From Malacoraja senta (lineage: Eukaryota): a stretch of DNA of 64,000 nt. Positions 6,601-52,083 of the stretch are shown here, piece by piece (positions within the stretch are counted from its first letter, which is position 1; every line of letters begins with the position of its first letter). The position numbers and the translations under genes are program-made. The stretch is taken from the NCBI GenBank assembly GCA_038087875.1, contig CM075991.1, forward strand, positions 13,270,001 through 13,334,000. The letters run 5' to 3'. The notes beneath the pieces were generated by a model that worked only from the letters and a program-made list of their open reading frames with translations, did not search any database and was not told where the DNA came from.

Positions 6601-7922
6601 CCAAAGGGCCTGTTCTCATGCTGTACTGGGTTTGACCTTCTATGTATTAGCTTAAGAATTGTAGAATTGTTGCAGCATAGTGACCAATTAGCTCATTGAA
6701 TAGACTGGTTTCCTATTGAGAACCATACGGATTCCATTCTCCTGCTCTTTCCATCAACACTGCGTTACGTCCCAGGTGCGACTATCAGGGTCAAATTTCC
6801 AAGCCTAGACTGTTCCTGTCACCCTTACAGGCAGTGGGTTCCATGCCAGCACCTATACCTATCATGTATAAGGTTTAAGTTGAGAGTGGAAAGGTTAGGA
6901 ACTTGAGGGGCAACTTTTTCACACAGAAGGTGATGGGTGTATGGAACGAGCTGTCAGAGGAGGATGTTGAGGTAAGATGTAGCTACTAAAATAATATTTA
7001 AAAGACATTTGGACAGGTACATATAGTTTCAAGGTAATTCGAATTTCACTGTACCTTAATTGATACGTGACAATAAACTGACCTTGAAACCTTGAAGCAG
7101 CGTACCGACCTAAAATGTCACCTATTCATTTTCTCCAGAGATACTGCCTGACCCGCTGAGTTACTCCAGCATTATGTCTATCTAAGGTTTAGTGGGAGAT
7201 GGGCCAAACGTGAGCAGATGGGGCTAGTATAGATGGGGCATCTTGGTCGGCATGGGCAAGTTGTGCCAAATGGTCTGTTTCCATGCTATATGACTCGATA
7301 GCTTTTAACACCAGTTTATTCTTGCACTATATTGTGTAGTTCTGCTATACATGGCTGCGACTGAGCCCTGCTGCACAATCCGCCCTGGCTCTTTGGGAGT
7401 TCCGAGTTTTGACGGCAGATGCCACAGACGCCTGTTTGGGGAGGCATCGATGGACCAGGCCCCTCTGCAACGACTTTCACCTGCACCTGTTCTGTGCAAG
7501 GCTCCCAAACAAACATTTCCTTATCTCAGCTAACACACATTTGGTTCCTGATGGCACATTAATCCTTTAAAATTTACTGAAGTGTAAATATTTCTTATGT
7601 TATTATTTCAGCAAAAAGAGATTTTAAATCTGAAAGATTCCCAACAGCTGCTAACCACAGAAGAGTGCATTTTAAAATGGCTCCTGCCCACCATTAGTTA
7701 TATTTATTATCATATCTTGTGTCTGCATCTCTCTCTGACAAACATGCTGGAGTTTCAGTTGAGACCTTGTTATGCGTGATTTTTTCCCGAACAGTCTGTG
7801 ACCCATAGCGCAGTAGCCGGTAGCACTATATTTAAAGCCCATAGCGCAGTAGCTGGTAGCACTATATTTACCCCCTATAGTTCTGCAGCCGACAGCACTT
7901 TGTTTAAATTGCCATGCACTAA

Positions 7923-8122
7923 AGGGCCTGTCCCACTTGGGCGTCATTTGCGCGTCACGCAGATGGCGCGCGAAGATTTTGTACATCCCAAAATCCTGGG
8001 GAGCCGCATGCGACTGCGCATCACTGCCTACGTGACCACGCAACGTGCGTGCGTAATGCACACCATGCTCTCATCACGTGCGTGTCATGTCGCGTAAATG
8101 ACGCCCAAGTGGGACAAGCCCT
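7923..8122. mobile_element. PIF/Harbinger-like MITE nested in the 5' LTR
   Basis: TIR AGGGCCTGTCCCACTTGGGCGTCATTT / AAATGACGCCCAAGTGGGACAAGCCCT; TAA TSD; the 3' LTR shows the empty site (CACTAAGCCG near 9969). Confidence 0.88.
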
Positions 8123-8481
8123 TAAACCGACAGCGCTGTTTAAACCTTTGCGCGCCAAACCAGCGGTGCCATGTCTGTAGGTCTGTGTGTATTCATTTGC
8201 GCGCCAAGTCTGTAGCGATGTGTATTGCTATACGCGCCAGTCTGTGACTGATAGTGCCTAGTTCCCAAAGGAGGGGGCCTCGCTCGGATGCAGTCCCCTA
8301 CCATTGGTTATAGTTTGAATTTGGGAGCAGTGCTATTGGCCAGGACGTACCGGCGGTTATTTCAACAGCTGATTTCTTACCTGTAGAAAGGCAGGCGCCA
8401 GTAAACCAGAAGTTAGTTTATGCACGAGAGGTGTCCGCCGACAGACTGAGTCGCGATCAACGCCCCGGACGGAGGCCGAGA

Positions 8482-8806
8482 GAGAGTCCACAACCAGGGG
8501 CCACAGTTTAAGAATAAGGGGTAGGCCATTTAGAACGGAGATGAGGAAAAACGTTTTCACCCAGGGAGTTGTGAATCTGTGGAATTCTCTGCCTCAGAAG
8601 GCAGTGCAGGCCAATTCTCTGGATTCTTTCAAGAGAGAGTTAGATAGAGCTCTTAAAGATAGCGGAGTCCTGGGATATGGAGAGAAGGCAGGAACGTAAT
8701 GTGAACCTTGGGGTACTGATTGTGGATGATCAGCCATAATCACAGTGAATGACGGTGCTGGCTAAAGGGCCGAATGGCCTACTCCTGCACCTATTGTCTA
8801 TTGTCT
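8482..8806 (+). mobile_element. CR1 LINE 3' fragment nested in the 5' LTR
   Basis: Encodes RGHSLRIRGRPFRTEMRKN..., followed by the CR1 3' UTR ending in the CTATTGT repeat; absent from the 3' LTR. Confidence 0.85.
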
Positions 8807-8940
8807 CTTTCCAATAAAACTGATTTATTACTTGTGAGCCTTTTTCTGTTCTACTAGTCAGATCCTTGAACCTGTTCCCTTGAAACATTTGGCGTAGATC
8901 GGACGAATAGAATATGTTTGGTAAAAATAAATATTCAAAC

Positions 8941-9607
8941 GAGATGGCGCTGGTGCAGGCCAAGCACCCCTGCAACAAGCTGCTGCTCTCAGTGCAGGGG
9001 AGCCCGCAGCAGGCCGTGCTGCAGGTGGGACCAAGAACCCTTGAGTCTTCAAGCTCCTCTAATGTTTTTACTGAGTCACAAGGGAGAACTTTATTGTTAT
9101 AAATTTCACTCAAATGGATCAACACTGGCATCTGCAGGATTTGATCGACTCCTATTGTTTTGGAAGATATATGGTGACTGCGATAATTATCCTGCATTGG
9201 AAGGTCACAGTGGATCAGTGATGGAATTACATTATAACACAGATGGCAGCATGTTTTTTCCAGCATCAACAGACAAAACTGTAGCAGTGTGGGACAGTGA
9301 AACAGGTGAAAGAATCAAGAGACTTAAAGGTCACACATCCTTTGTGAATTCATGTTATCCAGCCCGACGGGGACCACGGTTGGTCTGTACAGGAAGCGAG
9401 GATGATACAGTGAAGCTATGGGACATTCGGAAGAAGGCTGCAATCCATACGTTTCAAAACACATACCAAGTAATGCCAGAAACGTTTAATGACACAAGCG
9501 ATCAGATTATCTCTGGTGGTATTCATGACGGCATTAAGGTTTGGGACCTCCGACAAAACATGTTAATTTGTACCTTGCGTGGTTATACAGACTCGGTGAC
9601 TGATTTA
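8941..9607 (+). pseudogene. SNRNP40: Processed (intronless), 3'-truncated retrocopy of U5 snRNP 40-kDa WD40 protein
   Basis: Translation EMALVQAKHP...SLQAPLMFLLSHKGELYCYKFHSNGSTLASAGFDRLLLFWKIYGDCDNY...GHTSFVNSCYPARRGP...KLWDIRKKAAIHTFQNTYQV...KVWDLRQN...RGYTDSVTDL matches vertebrate SNRNP40/WDR57 continuously with no introns; one frameshift near 9040; C-terminal third missing. Confidence 0.93.
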
Positions 9608-9614
9608 ACCGAGT

Positions 9615-9761
9615 GGGGTAAAAGAGAACATCACCAACCTCGCTGACCACATCCAGGAAGCCGTAGAGAAGATTCGAAGGGTTGGAGAACAGTACCACGA
9701 CTACAATCCATCGGGAGGATGGTGGACAAGTGATGAACTGGGGACCGGCCATTGGACATAA
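9615..9761 (+). pseudogene. Retroviral env transmembrane-subunit-like remnant
   Basis: Open frame VKENITNLADHIQEAVEKIRRVGEQYHDYNPSGGWW: an N-glycosylation sequon, an amphipathic heptad helix and a Trp pair, located just before the PPT, as in TM ectodomains. Confidence 0.55.
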
Positions 9762-9856
9762 TATTACGACGTTTCACTACAGCCTGTGGGCCGGATGTAA
9801 CGAGGTAACGCCTGTAGGACGGATGTGATGGTAACCAGACTGTTCAAGGGGTGGAA

Positions 9857-10498
9857 TGTTATACGAGTATTTTGCCAGAACAGTCTGTGACCCATAGCGG
9901 TGTAGCTGGTAGCACTATATTTAGGACCCATAGCGCTGCAGCCGACACCGCTTTGTTTAAATTCCCACGCACTAAGCCGACAGCGCTCTATTTAAACCTT
10001 TGCGAGCCAAACCGGCAGCGCTGTATTACCTTTACGCGCCAGGTCTGTAGCGCTGTGTGTATTGATTTGCGCGCCAAGTCTGTAGCGATGTGTATTACCT
10101 AGTTCCCAAAGGGGAGGGGGGTGGGGGGGGGGGCCTCGCTTGAATGCAGTCCCCTACCATTGGTTATAGTTTGAATTTGGGAGCAGTGCTATTGGCCAGG
10201 ACGTACCGGCGGTTATTTCAACAGCTGATTTCTTACCTGTAGAAAGGCAGGCGCCAGTAAGCTAGAAGTTAGTTTATGTACGAGAGGGGTTCACCGACAG
10301 GCTAAGTCACGATCAGCGCTGCGGACGGAGGCCGAGAGAGAGAGAGAGAGGTGTGCTGCTGTAAACCGGACCCCGCGCATACCAAGACAAGTATTGTGTT
10401 TGTTCTCTCTTGCCAATAAAACTGATTTGCAACTAAACAGACGAGTGAGCCTTTTTCTGTTCTACTAGTCAGATCCTTGAACCTGTTCCCTTGTAACT
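9857..10498 (+). repeat. 3' LTR (~640 bp)
   Basis: TGTTAT...TGTAACT (terminal A appears mutated); preceded by the PPT and followed by the TSD; ATTGG/TATA-like segment near 10159-10170; AATAAA at 10415-10420. Confidence 0.9.
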
Positions 10499-11674
10499 GA
10501 CCTCAATGTATTTTTCTAATTGATTTGTGGGTGAATTGTTCTGCACCACTGTGACCTATCCACTCATGATGCTTCTGTCTAAAGGCTCCAGCCAGCGATG
10601 AGTTAAAACAAGCCCTGGTGTGTTATTTGATTCTACTCTGAGTGATAAAGGCCTGGTACATCTATCAACTGATTATCACCAAGCATTCGGTACTTGGTGC
10701 CCATATTGGAAAGCAACAAATCGCCCTGTCTCTCATCATTAACCAGTATCCCTGCTGGTATATGTTGACTGAACACATGATCAGGATTAAGTGATCCCAA
10801 TGTTCTTCAAGTTAGAACATCTGGTTCAAACACTGTACCAGAAATTCAATTGCCCATTAAAACCCGTAGTAAAATGGCAACATACAATGATCTGAGGTCA
10901 GTTTAATCCTGTGTCATTAATACTTGATTTACATGCCTATATCCTGTGTTAATTCTGTGTGCCTCTGTGATGCTGATCACAATGGCTTTCTCATAAACTT
11001 GTTAGGCATGAGTGAATTTGGGAGTCGATCACCAGGTGAAATCAGAGTGAAACTCCTGTAATCCACTTTCCCGCTGTTTGGAAACCCTGACGCTTTGTTA
11101 CTGGGCCTGATTCCTGCGCTCTCTTAGAACACAGGGGCTCCTGTTCTTGCGCACCCTCTGACACACCAGGGAAAAAGTGAAAACCCCATGTGCCAACACC
11201 TTTGCTATTTCCAGATATTTAATCCAGATATGCAGGCACACCATGCAAGAACATTGTAACACCCATTAACACCCATCTCTCTTGCAGAAACTGGAAGTAA
11301 CTGGATTAGCCTACACAGGGAGCTGCGACTGAGCTCACAGGCCCCATCACCTGGAGAATAAGGTGCAGTACATCAGGGATTCAAGTGCCACAGACCAATT
11401 GCCCACGAGGATAACATATCTGTATATACATTCCTCTCATGTTCCTCTCCCCACTGTCTCTCCTGCATTCCGAGGTTTTAGGTTTTTGTTAATTTTAAAG
11501 ATATAGCATAGACACAGGCCTTCCAGCCCACCGAGTCCACGCTGACCATCGATCATCCATACATACTAGTTCTATGTTATCCCACGTTATTATTCATTCC
11601 CTAAACATTAGAGGCAATTTTACAGAGGCTAATTAACCTAAAAACCAGCACGTCTTTGGAAACCGGAGCACCCT

Positions 11675-19520: not shown

Positions 19521-21004
19521 TTTGCAAACTGAGCAGTTTTGATCTTTCCAGTAATTTGGAACTGCTTTCCCAGGACCAGGTGGCAATTAAAGATCATTTT
19601 TATCTGCACTTTCTCTACAGCTATAACATGTGCAGCTCTGCACTGTTTCCTTTCACATTCTGCACCATGCATGGTTTGATTATACTCATATATGGTTTGC
19701 ACATTCACCCTAAGGTCGTGTGGGTTTCCTCCTGTTTCCTCCCATATCCCAAAGATGTATGGGTTAATAGGCTGCTGTAAATTGCTCCTTGTGTGTAGAA
19801 GGGTGGTAGGAACTAAGGAAAGGGTCTCAACTCAAAGGCTCGAGGGTCAGTTATTTGCAGTAGCGATGCTCCCAGGTAATCCTGGTAAACTGATGAGCCT
19901 GGGGAAGACATGGTTGGCTTGTGCTATCAGCATCTCTGTGTTTCCATATTGCTTATTTCCTTCACAATAGAAGTGCTCACAAGGTCCCCTCTTGCCTGCA
20001 GCTTTTGTTGAGTTTCAATTATATTCAAAATTTGGCAAGTATTTGTTAATATAGGCATACATCCTTGAGCAGGTTCAGTAGCGATGTCTAAAGTCCTTGA
20101 ACATACATGACTATATTTCTCACAGTAACAAGCCTCTGCTGGTTAACAATTTAGTGTTAAGTGTCTGCTGGAATACCATAGGTTAGGCTCTTGAACTACC
20201 CTGAGCATCCCTAACCACAACCCTACCTCAGCAACAAACTATGATGGACTTAGTAGTAAGTTGCACCACGTATGTTGGCTTGCACTATTGTGGCCTTGAT
20301 TATTATGTTGTATAACTCAGAATATTCATTTGCTGAATTGTTGCATTTAATGTGTAAAGCTACAGCAAGTAAGAATGTCATTGTTCCAGTCCTAGGATTC
20401 TTGATGACTTTTATTCTTTGGGCCCAAAGGCAATGCAAACTGTCTAGAAGACAACCTGTTAAGGGGCCATATCCTTACTTTGTGCACATGTTACTGTAAA
20501 TATGCAAAATGTAACCAAAAAAACTACATGCTAATTTAAAATCAGTCTCTTTAAGTGGGTCGACATAATACACATCTGACGTGTATTTAGTGATGTACCG
20601 TATCGTTGAGGTGCTTATTCTGCAGGAATAACAAGGACAAATTTGGTTTACTTGTGTCAGGCCATTTAAGTAATGTATTGGAACTTTATTACTGTTATTG
20701 TTATGATTAACTATCTATGTGGACGGAGGGGTGTGGGAGGGGGGAGGAGTGATCTGGGGGGGTGTGGGAGGGGGTGTGTGTGTGTGTGGGGGGGAGAGGT
20801 GTGTGGGCAGAGGGGTCGTTGGGGATGGGTGTGTGAGGGCGGGGGGGTTGTGGGGGTATGTGGGCAGCGGGGTGTGGGTGTGTGTGGAGAGGGTGTATGT
20901 GGGCGGGGGGGAGTGGGATGTGTGAGCGGGGGGGAGTGAGCTCAGAGAAAAGCCGGGGAAGAGCGATGGGGGAGAGGGGGGCATCAAGGGGGAGGAGCCA
21001 GCGA

Positions 21005-22125
21005 GGGGGTTCAGTATTGATGTGGATAGAGAACTGGCTGGCAAACAGGAAGCAAAGAGTAGGAGTAAACGGGTCCTTTTCACAATGGCAGGCAGTGACT
21101 AGTGGGGTACCGCAAGGCTCAGTGCTGGGACCCCAGCTATTTACAATTTATATTAATGATCTGGACGAGGGAATTGAAAGCAACATCTCCAAGTTTGCGG
21201 ATGACACTAAGCTGGGGGGCAGTGTTAGCTGTGAGGAGGATGCTAGGAGACTGCAACGTGACTTGGATAGGCTGGGTGAGTGGGCAAATGTTTGGCAGAT
21301 GCAGTATGTGGATAAATGTGAGGTTATCCACTTTGGTGGCAAAAACGGGAAGGCAGACTATTATCTAAATGGTGGCCGATTAGGAAATGGGGAGATGCAG
21401 CGAGACCTGGGTGTCATGGTACACCAGTCATTGAAAGTAGGCATGCAGGTGCAGCAGGCAGTGAAGAAAGCGAATGGTATGTTGGCCTTCATAGCAAGAG
21501 GATTTTAGTATAGGAGCAGGGAGGTTCTACTGCAGTTGTACAGGGTCTTGGTGAGACCACATCTGGAGTATTGCGTACAGTTTTGGTCTCCAAATCTGAG
21601 GAAGGACATTATAGCCATAGAGGGGGTGCAGAGAAGGTTCACCAGACTGATTCCTGGGATGTCAGGACTTTCATATGAAGAAAGACTGGATAGACTTGGC
21701 TTATACTCGCTAGAATTTAGGAGATTGAGAGGGGATCTTATAGAAACGTACAAAATTCTTATGGGGTTGGACAGGCTAGATGCAGGAAGATTGTTCCCGA
21801 TGTTGGGGAAGTCCAGGACAAGGGGTCACAGCTTAAGGATAAGGGGGAAATCCTTTAAGACCGAGATGAGGAAAAACGTTTTCACACAGAGAGTGGTGAA
21901 TCTCTGGAACTCTCTGCCACAGAGGGTAGTTGAGGCCAGTTCATTGGCTATATTTAAGAGGGAGTTAGATGTGGCCCTTGTGGCTAAAGGGATCAGGGGG
22001 TATGGAGAGAAGGCAGGTACGGGATACTGAGTTGGATGATCAGCCATGATCATATTGAATGGCGGTGCAGGCTCGAAGGGCCGAATGGCCTACTCTTGCA
22101 CCTATTTTCTATGTTTCTATGTTTC
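21005..22125 (+). mobile_element. CR1 LINE 3' portion (duplicate of the intron-2 copy)
   Basis: RT motifs GVPQGSVLGP and KFADDTK; premature TAG at 21506-21508; TTTCTATG repeat tail. Confidence 0.92.
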
Positions 22126-34588: not shown

Positions 34589-36398
34589 GGAAACATAGAA
34601 ACATAGAAAATAGGTGCAAGAGTAGGCCATTCGGCCCTTCGAGCCTGCACCGCCATTCAATATGATCATGGCTGATCATCCAACTCAGTATCCCGTACCT
34701 GCCTTCTCTCCATACCCCCTGATCCCTTTAGCCACAAGGGCCACATCTAACTCCCTCTTAAATATAGCCAATGAACTGGCCTCAACTACCCTCTGTGGCA
34801 GAGAGTTCCAGAGATTCACCACTCTCTGTGTGAAAAAGTTTTTCCTCATCTCGGTCTTAAAGGATTTCCCCCTTATCCTTAAGCTGTGACCCCTTGTCCT
34901 GGACTTCCCCAACATCGGGAACAATCTTCCTGCATCTAGCCTGTCCAACCCCATAAGAATTTTGTATGTTTCTATAAGATCCCCTCTCAATCTCCTAAAT
35001 TCTAGCGAGTATAAGCCAAGTCTATCCAGTCTTTCTTCATATGAAAGTCCTGACATCCCAGGAATCAGTCTGGTGAACCTTCTCTGCACTCCCTCTATGG
35101 CTATAATGTCCTTCCTCAGATTTGGAGACCAAAACTGCACGCAATACTCCAGGTGTGGTCTCACCAAGACCCTGTACAACTGCAGTAGAACCTCCCTGCT
35201 CCTATACTCAAATCCTCTTGCTATGAAGGCCAACATACCATTCGCTTTCTTCACTGCCTGCTGCACCTGCATGCCTACTTTCAATGACTGGTGTACCATG
35301 ACACCCAGGTCTCGCTGCATCTCCCCATTTCCTAATCGGCCACCATTTAGATAATAGTCTGCCTTCCCGTTTTTGCCACCAAAGTGGATAACCTCACATT
35401 TATCCACATTATACTGCATCTGCCAAACATTTGCCCACTCACCCAGCCTATCCAAGTCACCTTGCAGTCTCCTAGCATCCTCCTCACAGCTAACACTGCC
35501 CCCCAGCTTAGTGTCATCCGCAAACTTGGAGATGTTTCTTTCAATTCCCTCGTCCAGATCATTAATATAAATTGTAAATAGCTGGGGTCCCAGCACTGAG
35601 CCTTGCGGTACCCCACTAGTCACTGCCTGCCATTGTGAAAAGGACCCGTTTACTCCTACTCTTTGCTTCCTGTTTGCCAGCCAGTTCTCTATCCACATCA
35701 ATACTGAACCCCCAATACCGTGTGATTTAAGTTTGTATCCTAATCTCTTATTTGGTACCTTGTCGAAAGCCTTCTGAAAGTCCAGATACAACACATCCAC
35801 TGGTACTCCCCTATCCACTCTACTAGTTACATCCTCGAAAAATTCTATAAGATTCGTCAGACACGATTTACCTTTCGTAAATCCATGCTGACTTTGTCTA
35901 ATGATTTCACCACTTTCCAAATGTGCTGCTATCCCATCTTTAATAACTGACTCTAGCAGTTTCCCCACTACCGATGTTAGACTAACTGGTCTGTAATTCC
36001 CCGTTTTCTCTCTCCCTCCCTTCTTAAAATGTGGGGTTACGTTTGCTACCCTCCAATCCTCAGGAACTACTCCAGAATCTAAAGAGTTTTGAAAAATTAT
36101 CACTAATGCATCCACTATTTCTGGAGCTACTTCCTTAAGTACTCTGGGATGCAGCCTATCTGGCCCTGGTGATTTATCGGCCTTTAATCCATTCAATTTA
36201 CCCAACACCACTTCCCGACTAACCTGAATTTCACTCAGTTCCTCCATCTCCTTTGACCCGCGGCCCCCTGCTATTTCCGGCAGATTATTTATGTCTTCCT
36301 TAGTGAAGACGGAACCAAAGTAGTTATTCAATTGGTCCGCCATATCCTTGTTCCCCATGATCAATTCACCTGTTTCTGACTGCAAGGGACCTACATTT
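34589..36398 (-). mobile_element. Young 5'-truncated CR1 LINE in H2AZ2 intron 2 (uninterrupted ~570-codon RT)
   Basis: ORF 34685-36406 with KSPGPD, NYRPVSLTS, YLDFQKAFDKVP, GVPQGSVLGP and FADD motifs and no stops; TTTCTATG repeat tail. Confidence 0.95.
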
Positions 36399-36707
36399 GG
36401 TAGCATAAAGATAAATGAAATTCAGCGGTGAAGTCTACTGAGCAATTACCGTAGCACGAGTTATCTCCAGGAGAGAAATTTGACATGAGATTTAAGCCAG
36501 GTAGCCGGAGATAAATGGTTAAATTTAGACACTTTTTCAAGGGAAAGGCATGGATCTCATAACTAATATGGTCTTTAAACATTTTCTATATTTTAGCAGG
36601 ACTGGAGGAGTATGAATATATAAAGTAACAATATTAGCTTACCAATAGGATTCTTGATTTTTTTTTGGACCATGTTGACAGTTGTCGCTTGGTATTTTTT
36701 CTTCTAG

Positions 36708-51296: not shown

Positions 51297-52083
<787 letters not shown>

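Follow-up and report, generated by a model that had tools for sequence, protein, structure and literature searches.

An intronless SNRNP40 fragment carried by a multicopy, non-autonomous retroviral element in the genome of the skate Malacoraja senta

We analyzed a window of 64,000 nucleotides (nt) of DNA from the skate Malacoraja senta (NCBI GenBank assembly GCA_038087875.1, contig CM075991.1, positions 13,270,001 to 13,334,000; G000:C15:13270001-13334000 in our numbering). At positions 7763-10503 it holds an element in which a spliced fragment of SNRNP40, a gene for a spliceosome subunit, takes the place of almost all viral coding sequence between two long terminal repeats (LTRs). The element belongs to a family of at least 60 loci that share a single origin, were integrated independently, have decayed neutrally and are kin to an endogenous retrovirus (ERV) family of the same genome. 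We consider it most probable (about 0.85) that the host mRNA was captured by template switching and that the resulting non-autonomous mini-element was then mobilised in trans with the host fragment as passenger cargo.

Results

Anatomy of the element

A preliminary description of this DNA had reported a target site duplication (TSD), two LTRs, a primer binding site (PBS) at 8890, an SNRNP40 insert and a polypurine tract (PPT), and all of these parts were read directly. The element lies on the + strand between two copies of the TSD GACCT (7763-7767 and 10499-10503). Its 5′ LTR (7768-8887, TG...CA), delimited by sequence and by comparison of the LTR pair, is long because two later insertions lie within it. 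The first is a 200-nt miniature inverted-repeat transposable element (7923-8122, no strand assigned), presumably PIF/Harbinger-like, with 36-nt inverted ends and TAA on each side; the 3′ LTR holds the empty site as a single TAA at about 9973-9975. The second is the 3′ end of a long interspersed element (LINE) that we take to be of CR1 type (8487-8806, + strand). A frame at 8373-8699 resembles by eye the end of the reverse transcriptase (RT) frame at 34685-36421, and reads of public runs reach very high depth, with loose ends, at 8801-8806, where the LINE ends.

Downstream of the 5′ LTR is the remnant of a tRNA-Ser PBS (8890-8897), about 8 nt shorter than the whole 18-nt site of sister copies, followed by a short leader (8898-8940). 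The leader, earlier put at about 50 nt, is present; in it lie the first ATG of the virus (8914) and nine codons of its first reading frame (frame 8911-9102). The captured, spliced SNRNP40 sequence follows at 8941-9607 and corresponds to nt 28-696 of the host coding sequence (CDS), codons 10-232, from exons 1-6; in this copy it is 90% identical to the parent gene and has a frameshift near 9030-9040. A remnant of the env transmembrane subunit (TM), with the second heptad and a tryptophan-rich stretch, makes up 9608-9845 together with a 3′ untranslated part; the membrane anchor has been lost. The PPT (9846-9856) stands immediately 5′ of the 3′ LTR (9857-10498), which is 642 nt long, has an AATAAA and has its final base altered so that it ends in CT. 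The two LTRs mismatch at 11% across 603 aligned nt. LTRs, PBS and PPT are retained without RT or integrase, as in non-autonomous LTR elements, and no pol or gag match below E 2.6 was found within 7763-10503, in agreement with the earlier view of a natural vector that kept only cis signals.

The cargo and its parent gene

The top natural match of the insert in PDB was human U5-40K (3jcr_D, residues 54-242, E 4e-111); a designed WD40 protein scored slightly higher, only through the sum of ten weak stretches. The parent SNRNP40 gene was located on contig C3857, with exon 1 at 165912-166025 and exons 2-6 within 177690-184790, and its protein is identical to Amblyraja SNRNP40 at 221 of 223 residues (stingray/manta, 215; bamboo shark, 207). 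The six parental exons match the insert at 87-92% with AG/GT borders at all six. The cargo is thus intronless, as had been proposed, and alignment to the parent gene shows it to cross five exon junctions, with both ends inside the CDS. Its 5′ end is host codon 10, 3 nt upstream of the second host Met (in-frame Met11), and its 3′ end is codon 232, inside exon 6. No poly(A) was detected at the 3′ end of the insert by comparison with the host gene and the parent ERV. Identity between insert and parent gene is 88-93% over 30 loci.

A family of independently integrated copies

The 1.94-Gb genome was searched for further copies. A DNA search returned 123 candidates, the best 40 of which were scored, and a protein search returned 173, of which 150 were scored. 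With the parent gene and three weak WD40 sites excluded before clustering, the protein search gave at least 60 SNRNP40-bearing loci on 18 contigs; four further loci (L040, L042, L043 and L054) were found by other routes. A leader pattern had 48 matches, 46 of them no more than 3 kb from an SNRNP40 locus and the other two in deletion derivatives, and the reversed control pattern had none.

All 30 loci that were fetched contain LTR and SNRNP40 sequence, mostly with the env tail and a second LTR, in a common LTR-leader-SNRNP40-env-TM layout. The 5′ junction is identical in 28 of the 30 (L022 has a small deletion and L029 is interrupted) and the 3′ junction is clean and common to 26, with local indels in L009, L010, L025 and L026. 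Of the 28 loci that span the relevant site, 27 carry one and the same 3-nt deletion and the last a larger one. A TSD could be read in L001, L011 (4 of 5 nt), L023 and L027/L028, and by eye in L040, and all five are different (GACCT, GAAGG, ATATG, ACCAG/CCCAG and, by eye, CATGT). Copies with the same junctions and other TSDs, which the preliminary description had named as the sign that the chimera itself was amplified, are therefore present.

Flanks are 97.7-100% identical in four of five close pairs (L004/6, L007/8, L025/26 and L027/28), and these pairs are duplicates. Leaving out L006, L008, L020, L026 and L028, we counted 25 independent copies. In the fifth pair, L005 and L020, the flanks do not match, and segmental duplication was rejected; the two lie 2.6 Mb apart on contig C1 and have 22 private changes in common, perhaps through gene conversion or because copying resumed late for a second round. 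A subfamily of L001 and L021 was rejected, as these have 0 rare changes in common against a mean of 0.67 per pair.

L027, L028 and L042 retain a longer env piece, which 28 of the 30 fetched loci are without, so the element existed in at least two structural forms. Relative to L027, the deleted piece is 150 nt between two near-identical short repeats.

Further variation was observed within the family. The spacer between LTR and PBS has two forms (AT or TT after the LTR end) among chimeras and cargo-free relatives, which may reflect recombination with different helper genomes. Internal-deletion derivatives include L040 (leader and two short SNRNP40 pieces) and L041 (leader only); L051 is a cargo-free derivative with a 0.7-kb internal form, and L054 is also listed among the smaller internal-deletion derivatives. 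At L055:1370-6695 a 5.3-kb LINE with long open frames lies inside the SNRNP40 insert. L011, L044 and L055 have a tandem repeat of about 28 nt, variable in copy number, between the env stop and the PPT; that it could serve RNA export or packaging is speculation.

The parent retrovirus

Loci L048-L053 have the same LTR end, PBS and leader as the chimeras, followed by viral sequence in place of SNRNP40. Cargo-free loci with this start number about seven, against the at least 60 chimeras. L048 lies between copies of a TSD of its own (TTACC) and preserves remnants of RT, integrase and env, and L053 has a weak protease match, all below Pfam cut-offs; L058 has leader and env and no pol match. A tRNA-Ser(CGA) gene of the same genome (L057, identified by ARAGORN) has a 3′ end complementary to the 18-nt PBS.

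The env-TM-like remnant that had been noted in the window has no Pfam match when its tail is used alone, and it matches the env frame of the ERV locus L047 at 50% (E 4e-10). The longer tail of the sister copy L027 matches TLV_coat (E 1e-7) and the TM of syncytin-1 (E 9e-9), as expected of a gamma-type TM, and contains what we take to be an immunosuppressive-domain motif. The pol and env remnants of the cargo-free relatives are 38-55% like the class I-like ERV L047 (38-43% for L048 pol against L047 pol), and L047 pol has a much stronger match to p80-type RTs (E 1e-137) than to foamy Pol (E 1e-60). The parent is best read as a class I-like ERV of skates with a tRNA-Ser primer and a 5-bp TSD. The first viral frame, open for 65-79 codons in four relatives (L049 and L051-L053), is probably gag.

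L047 itself was rejected as the direct parent, as its LTR and primer site differ. Together with L046 and many other loci it belongs to a separate class I-like ERV family with env frames of about 430 codons; LTR parts are identical in L047, which points to recent integration of this family. Locus L045 (contig C293) represents at least 18 copies, 93-98% alike and mostly on small contigs, of a relative that has env and, in its 3′ LTR, an env piece in inverted orientation. This group is possibly a second amplified deletion derivative or a tandem duplication.

The two junctions

Because the cargo-free relatives share the LTR, PBS and leader, both junctions of the chimera can be read directly. On the 5′ side the chimera follows the virus through the first ATG and eight or nine codons and then continues with host codon 10. 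At the 3′ switch the reading frame is kept, and an in-register L-S-G is encoded by the viral as well as the host sequence. Over the 12 nt that follow, 6-8 positions are identical between the host and four relatives, a level found in 0.3-5% of random windows (7 was reached in 1.4% and 8 in 0.3% of trials). Neither a TSD nor a poly(A) was found around the insert when both junctions were compared with the host and with four to five cargo-free relatives, and the preliminary description was correct that the insert has none of its own and is cut at both ends inside the CDS.

Timing and selection

The inserts form a star-shaped tree, its end branches having a median length of 0.056 and each copy being about 6% decayed; 3 of the 26 inner branches are well supported, all between close pairs, with the bootstrap not settled. 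LTR pairs differ by a median of 12.5% in 21 loci, or 0.060-0.068 per copy, which fits the end branches of the insert tree.

Changes among the copies comprise 1098 transitions and 440 transversions, and dN/dS between copies is 0.79-1.41 under four settings. Private changes comprise 547 replacements and 196 silent changes, a replacement fraction of 0.74 compared to 0.71 expected, and none of the 26 copies tested has a significant shortage of replacements. The test for purifying selection on the captured frame was thus negative, and the cargo evolves neutrally, probably as a passenger.

Sixteen replacements are common to at least 12 of the 25 independent copies, and Amblyraja has the host residue at 14 of these positions. 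At 9 of the 16 (WD40 codons 50-220) at least eight of nine outgroups have the host residue. Since replacements at such invariant residues are common to the copies, the source element was already drifting, or damaged, before the burst. Capture from another host species is unsupported: leaving aside neighbours of one host-side change, 3 of the 16 common replacements occur in any outgroup, with no consistent donor.

Other genomes and expression

A homologue search identified the RefSeq model XP_055494434.1 of Leucoraja erinacea, labelled a low-quality protein, as the same chimera. It has the same start, the same missing codon and the same in-frame env join in the deleted form, and carries 14 of the 16 common replacements. 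Its best matches among the loci studied here are 60-81%, as between any two copies, and no near-identical match that would mark an orthologue was found among the best 142 of 376 candidates.

Contigs of public runs X1, X3 and X15, from three organisms, bridge the 3′ junction (the status of X15 as an RNA run is our guess), and one X3 contig bridges the 5′ junction. The chimeric joins thus hold up in public-run contigs, though no contig spans the whole structure. In RNA run X23, of which 6% was read to a depth of 0-12 over the insert, no read was found at the 3′ junction (9610), and two of three reads at 9030 have the host form. Neither this very low-depth run nor the neutral cargo supports a useful role for a WD40 fragment driven by an LTR promoter, an arrangement suggested earlier.

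Other features of the window

CR1-type LINE copies at 34685-36421 (- strand) and 20837-22030 (+ strand) are nearly identical by eye, so this LINE family is probably young; the former has a 578-codon open RT frame (RVT_1, E 2e-30). The only other host gene piece noted in the window is a sulfotransferase frame at 51389-51937 (- strand; Sulfotransfer_1, E 1e-16), presumably related to heparan sulfate 3-O-sulfotransferase.

Discussion

We infer the following sequence of events. A spliced SNRNP40 mRNA would have been co-packaged with RNA of a class I-like skate ERV, and RT would have switched template twice, so that host sequence would run from a few codons past the initial viral ATG to the env TM region. 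By this route about 0.67 kb of host CDS would have replaced almost all viral coding sequence, giving a product of about 2.3 kb with LTRs, PBS, a 65-nt leader and PPT. The source element would then have gathered mutations and the 150-nt env deletion before its spread, and helper Gag-Pol would have copied it in trans, in about one burst, into 60 or more sites, every copy decaying neutrally from then on.

Such a history has well-known relatives. In transduction of oncogenes (v-onc), host CDS replaces viral genes in defective, helper-dependent retroviruses and is fused to viral frames, and mini LTR elements of the TRIM (terminal-repeat retrotransposon in miniature) type hold cis signals only. The skate element resembles both in having host CDS for viral genes, possible fusion at both ends, dependence on a helper and retained cis signals. 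By contrast to these systems, it carries part of a housekeeping spliceosome subunit on which no selection is apparent, and the element has become fixed at many germ-line sites.

The study of Tan et al. 2016 (PMC5131818) describes movement of RT between LTR-element RNA and co-packaged mRNA at short similar stretches, the product being recopied as a non-autonomous element, and reports LTR-mediated retrocopies in zebrafish, chicken, mouse and human. These retrocopies, as portrayed there, are alike in consisting of partial spliced mRNA between the halves of an LTR element, without poly(A) or own TSD, with microsimilarity at the switch points and further non-autonomous rounds; the skate element belongs with them, its insert being likewise intronless, flanked on both sides by one LTR element and free of poly(A) and TSD. 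Crocodilian CrocERV29 (KIT-ligand) and CrocERV31 (nectin3) are, according to PMC4299795, ancient ERV lineages that carry host mRNA in several copies common to species. They differ in that most viral genes are kept, copies number 9 and 6, and the cargo is under purifying selection, whereas the skate element keeps hardly any viral coding sequence and is far more numerous, with a neutral cargo. Capture is not rare in birds: PMC12287698 gives 107 captured domains, spread over 254 ERVs in 121 birds. RT, which the skate element lacks, was the basis for grouping those ERVs, and RT-based screens probably miss elements of this kind. A literature search, which covered few subscription papers and had supplements, Repbase and Dfam outside its scope, found no paper on the element; a repeat-library entry may exist. 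The mechanism is a known one, and we claim neither a new mechanism nor a functional gene; the scale and completeness of the example are unusual.

Several observations weigh against capture followed by passive spread. The preliminary description had proposed a search for junction microhomology. This was found in imperfect form at the 3′ switch (6-8 of 12 nt), where it was scored at a site picked after the fact, and amounts to 1 nt in common at the 5′ switch, where virus and host agree at 3-5 of 12 nt beyond. Later insertions displace LTR ends beyond the 1.5-kb flanks, so that TSDs could be read at L040 and at no more than 5 of the 30 fetched loci (4 independent). The full-length helper that had been looked for is represented by decayed relatives, and no intact helper with the same LTR was found among L048-L053 and L058. 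The first viral frame, though probably gag, has no notable Pfam match, no Atlas match and no resemblance to the gag-position frame of L047. Finally, a pure passenger has no need of a preserved reading frame, yet the frame is preserved across the 3′ junction, the 3-nt deletion and the 150-nt env deletion alike.

This last point bears on a variant with the same capture, in which an open frame from host Met11 to the env stop, and not the protein sequence, was selected during spread through effects on RNA stability or export. We regard such selection as rather unlikely, though it is compatible with our preferred reading. Besides the two frame-keeping deletions, it could account for the in-frame SNRNP40-env join of L004, L005, L006, L019, L027, L028 and the Leucoraja model, for the env register kept through the hydrophobic anchor in five copies (L003, L011, L013, L014 and L017), for the first viral ATG that runs into SNRNP40 in the window copy and L021, and for the excess of chimeras over cargo-free loci. 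However, the naive probability that three such events would all keep the frame by chance is 1 in 27, two of the three are explained by codon-register repeats at the switch points, and in 22 of the 24 loci read a stop follows the viral ATG after six codons. Short non-autonomous elements are, moreover, often more numerous than their helpers, which weakens the argument from copy number.

A function for the SNRNP40-TM fusion protein itself, as a dominant-negative spliceosome fragment or through a v-onc-like advantage, with at least one copy a retrogene, is very improbable and largely refuted. Two of 25 independent copies are free of stops and frameshifts, the little-skate copy was annotated by RefSeq as a protein, and the insert begins 3 nt before an in-frame host Met. 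But about 1.1 unbroken copies are expected by chance, the replacement and silent changes in L005 (25/7) and L027 (21/8) are neutral, and the source element was already damaged at conserved WD40 residues.

It is also highly improbable that a LINE-made retrocopy landed in a provirus, lost its ends along with the viral genes by recombination or deletion, and then spread. CR1-type LINEs are abundant and do insert into this element family, as in the window 5′ LTR and L055. Even so, both insert ends lie within the CDS with no poly(A) or TSD relative to the cargo-free relatives, the insert is in sense orientation with microsimilarity exactly at the 3′ join, and none of the 30 loci is an intermediate that retains additional mRNA or viral sequence at the joins. 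The earlier rejection of a LINE origin is upheld on these grounds. That the copies are segmental duplicates or assembly artefacts of a single locus, as the common flanks of four close pairs might suggest, is refuted for the family as a whole by the differing TSDs, the spread over 18 contigs, the star tree, the bridging contigs from three organisms and the same chimera in an independent assembly, and holds only for those four pairs.

To return to template-switch capture with mobilisation in trans, the natural record of retroviral gene transduction in this cartilaginous fish is unusually complete: besides at least 60 insertions, a single genome preserves the parent gene and the ERV family of origin, the two junctions, and both an early long and a derived deleted form. 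A bolder and doubtful extension is that the element is the fossil of a helper-dependent transducing retrovirus, in which the first viral frame, the host fragment and an anchored TM formed one frame, and which outnumbered its parent by about 9:1 because the mRNA piece aided the RNA against decay or in export or packaging. If so, a host mRNA fragment would have enhanced, in cis, the spread of a retrovirus through a vertebrate germ line, and a 65-nt leader would be sufficient for packaging. More generally, LTR machinery alone can build a large processed-pseudogene family from one capture, and the copies enter annotation as false paralogues, e.g., XP_055494434.1. The element bounds the cis sequence needed by a fish retrovirus, and its insertions could act as presence/absence markers in skate phylogeny.

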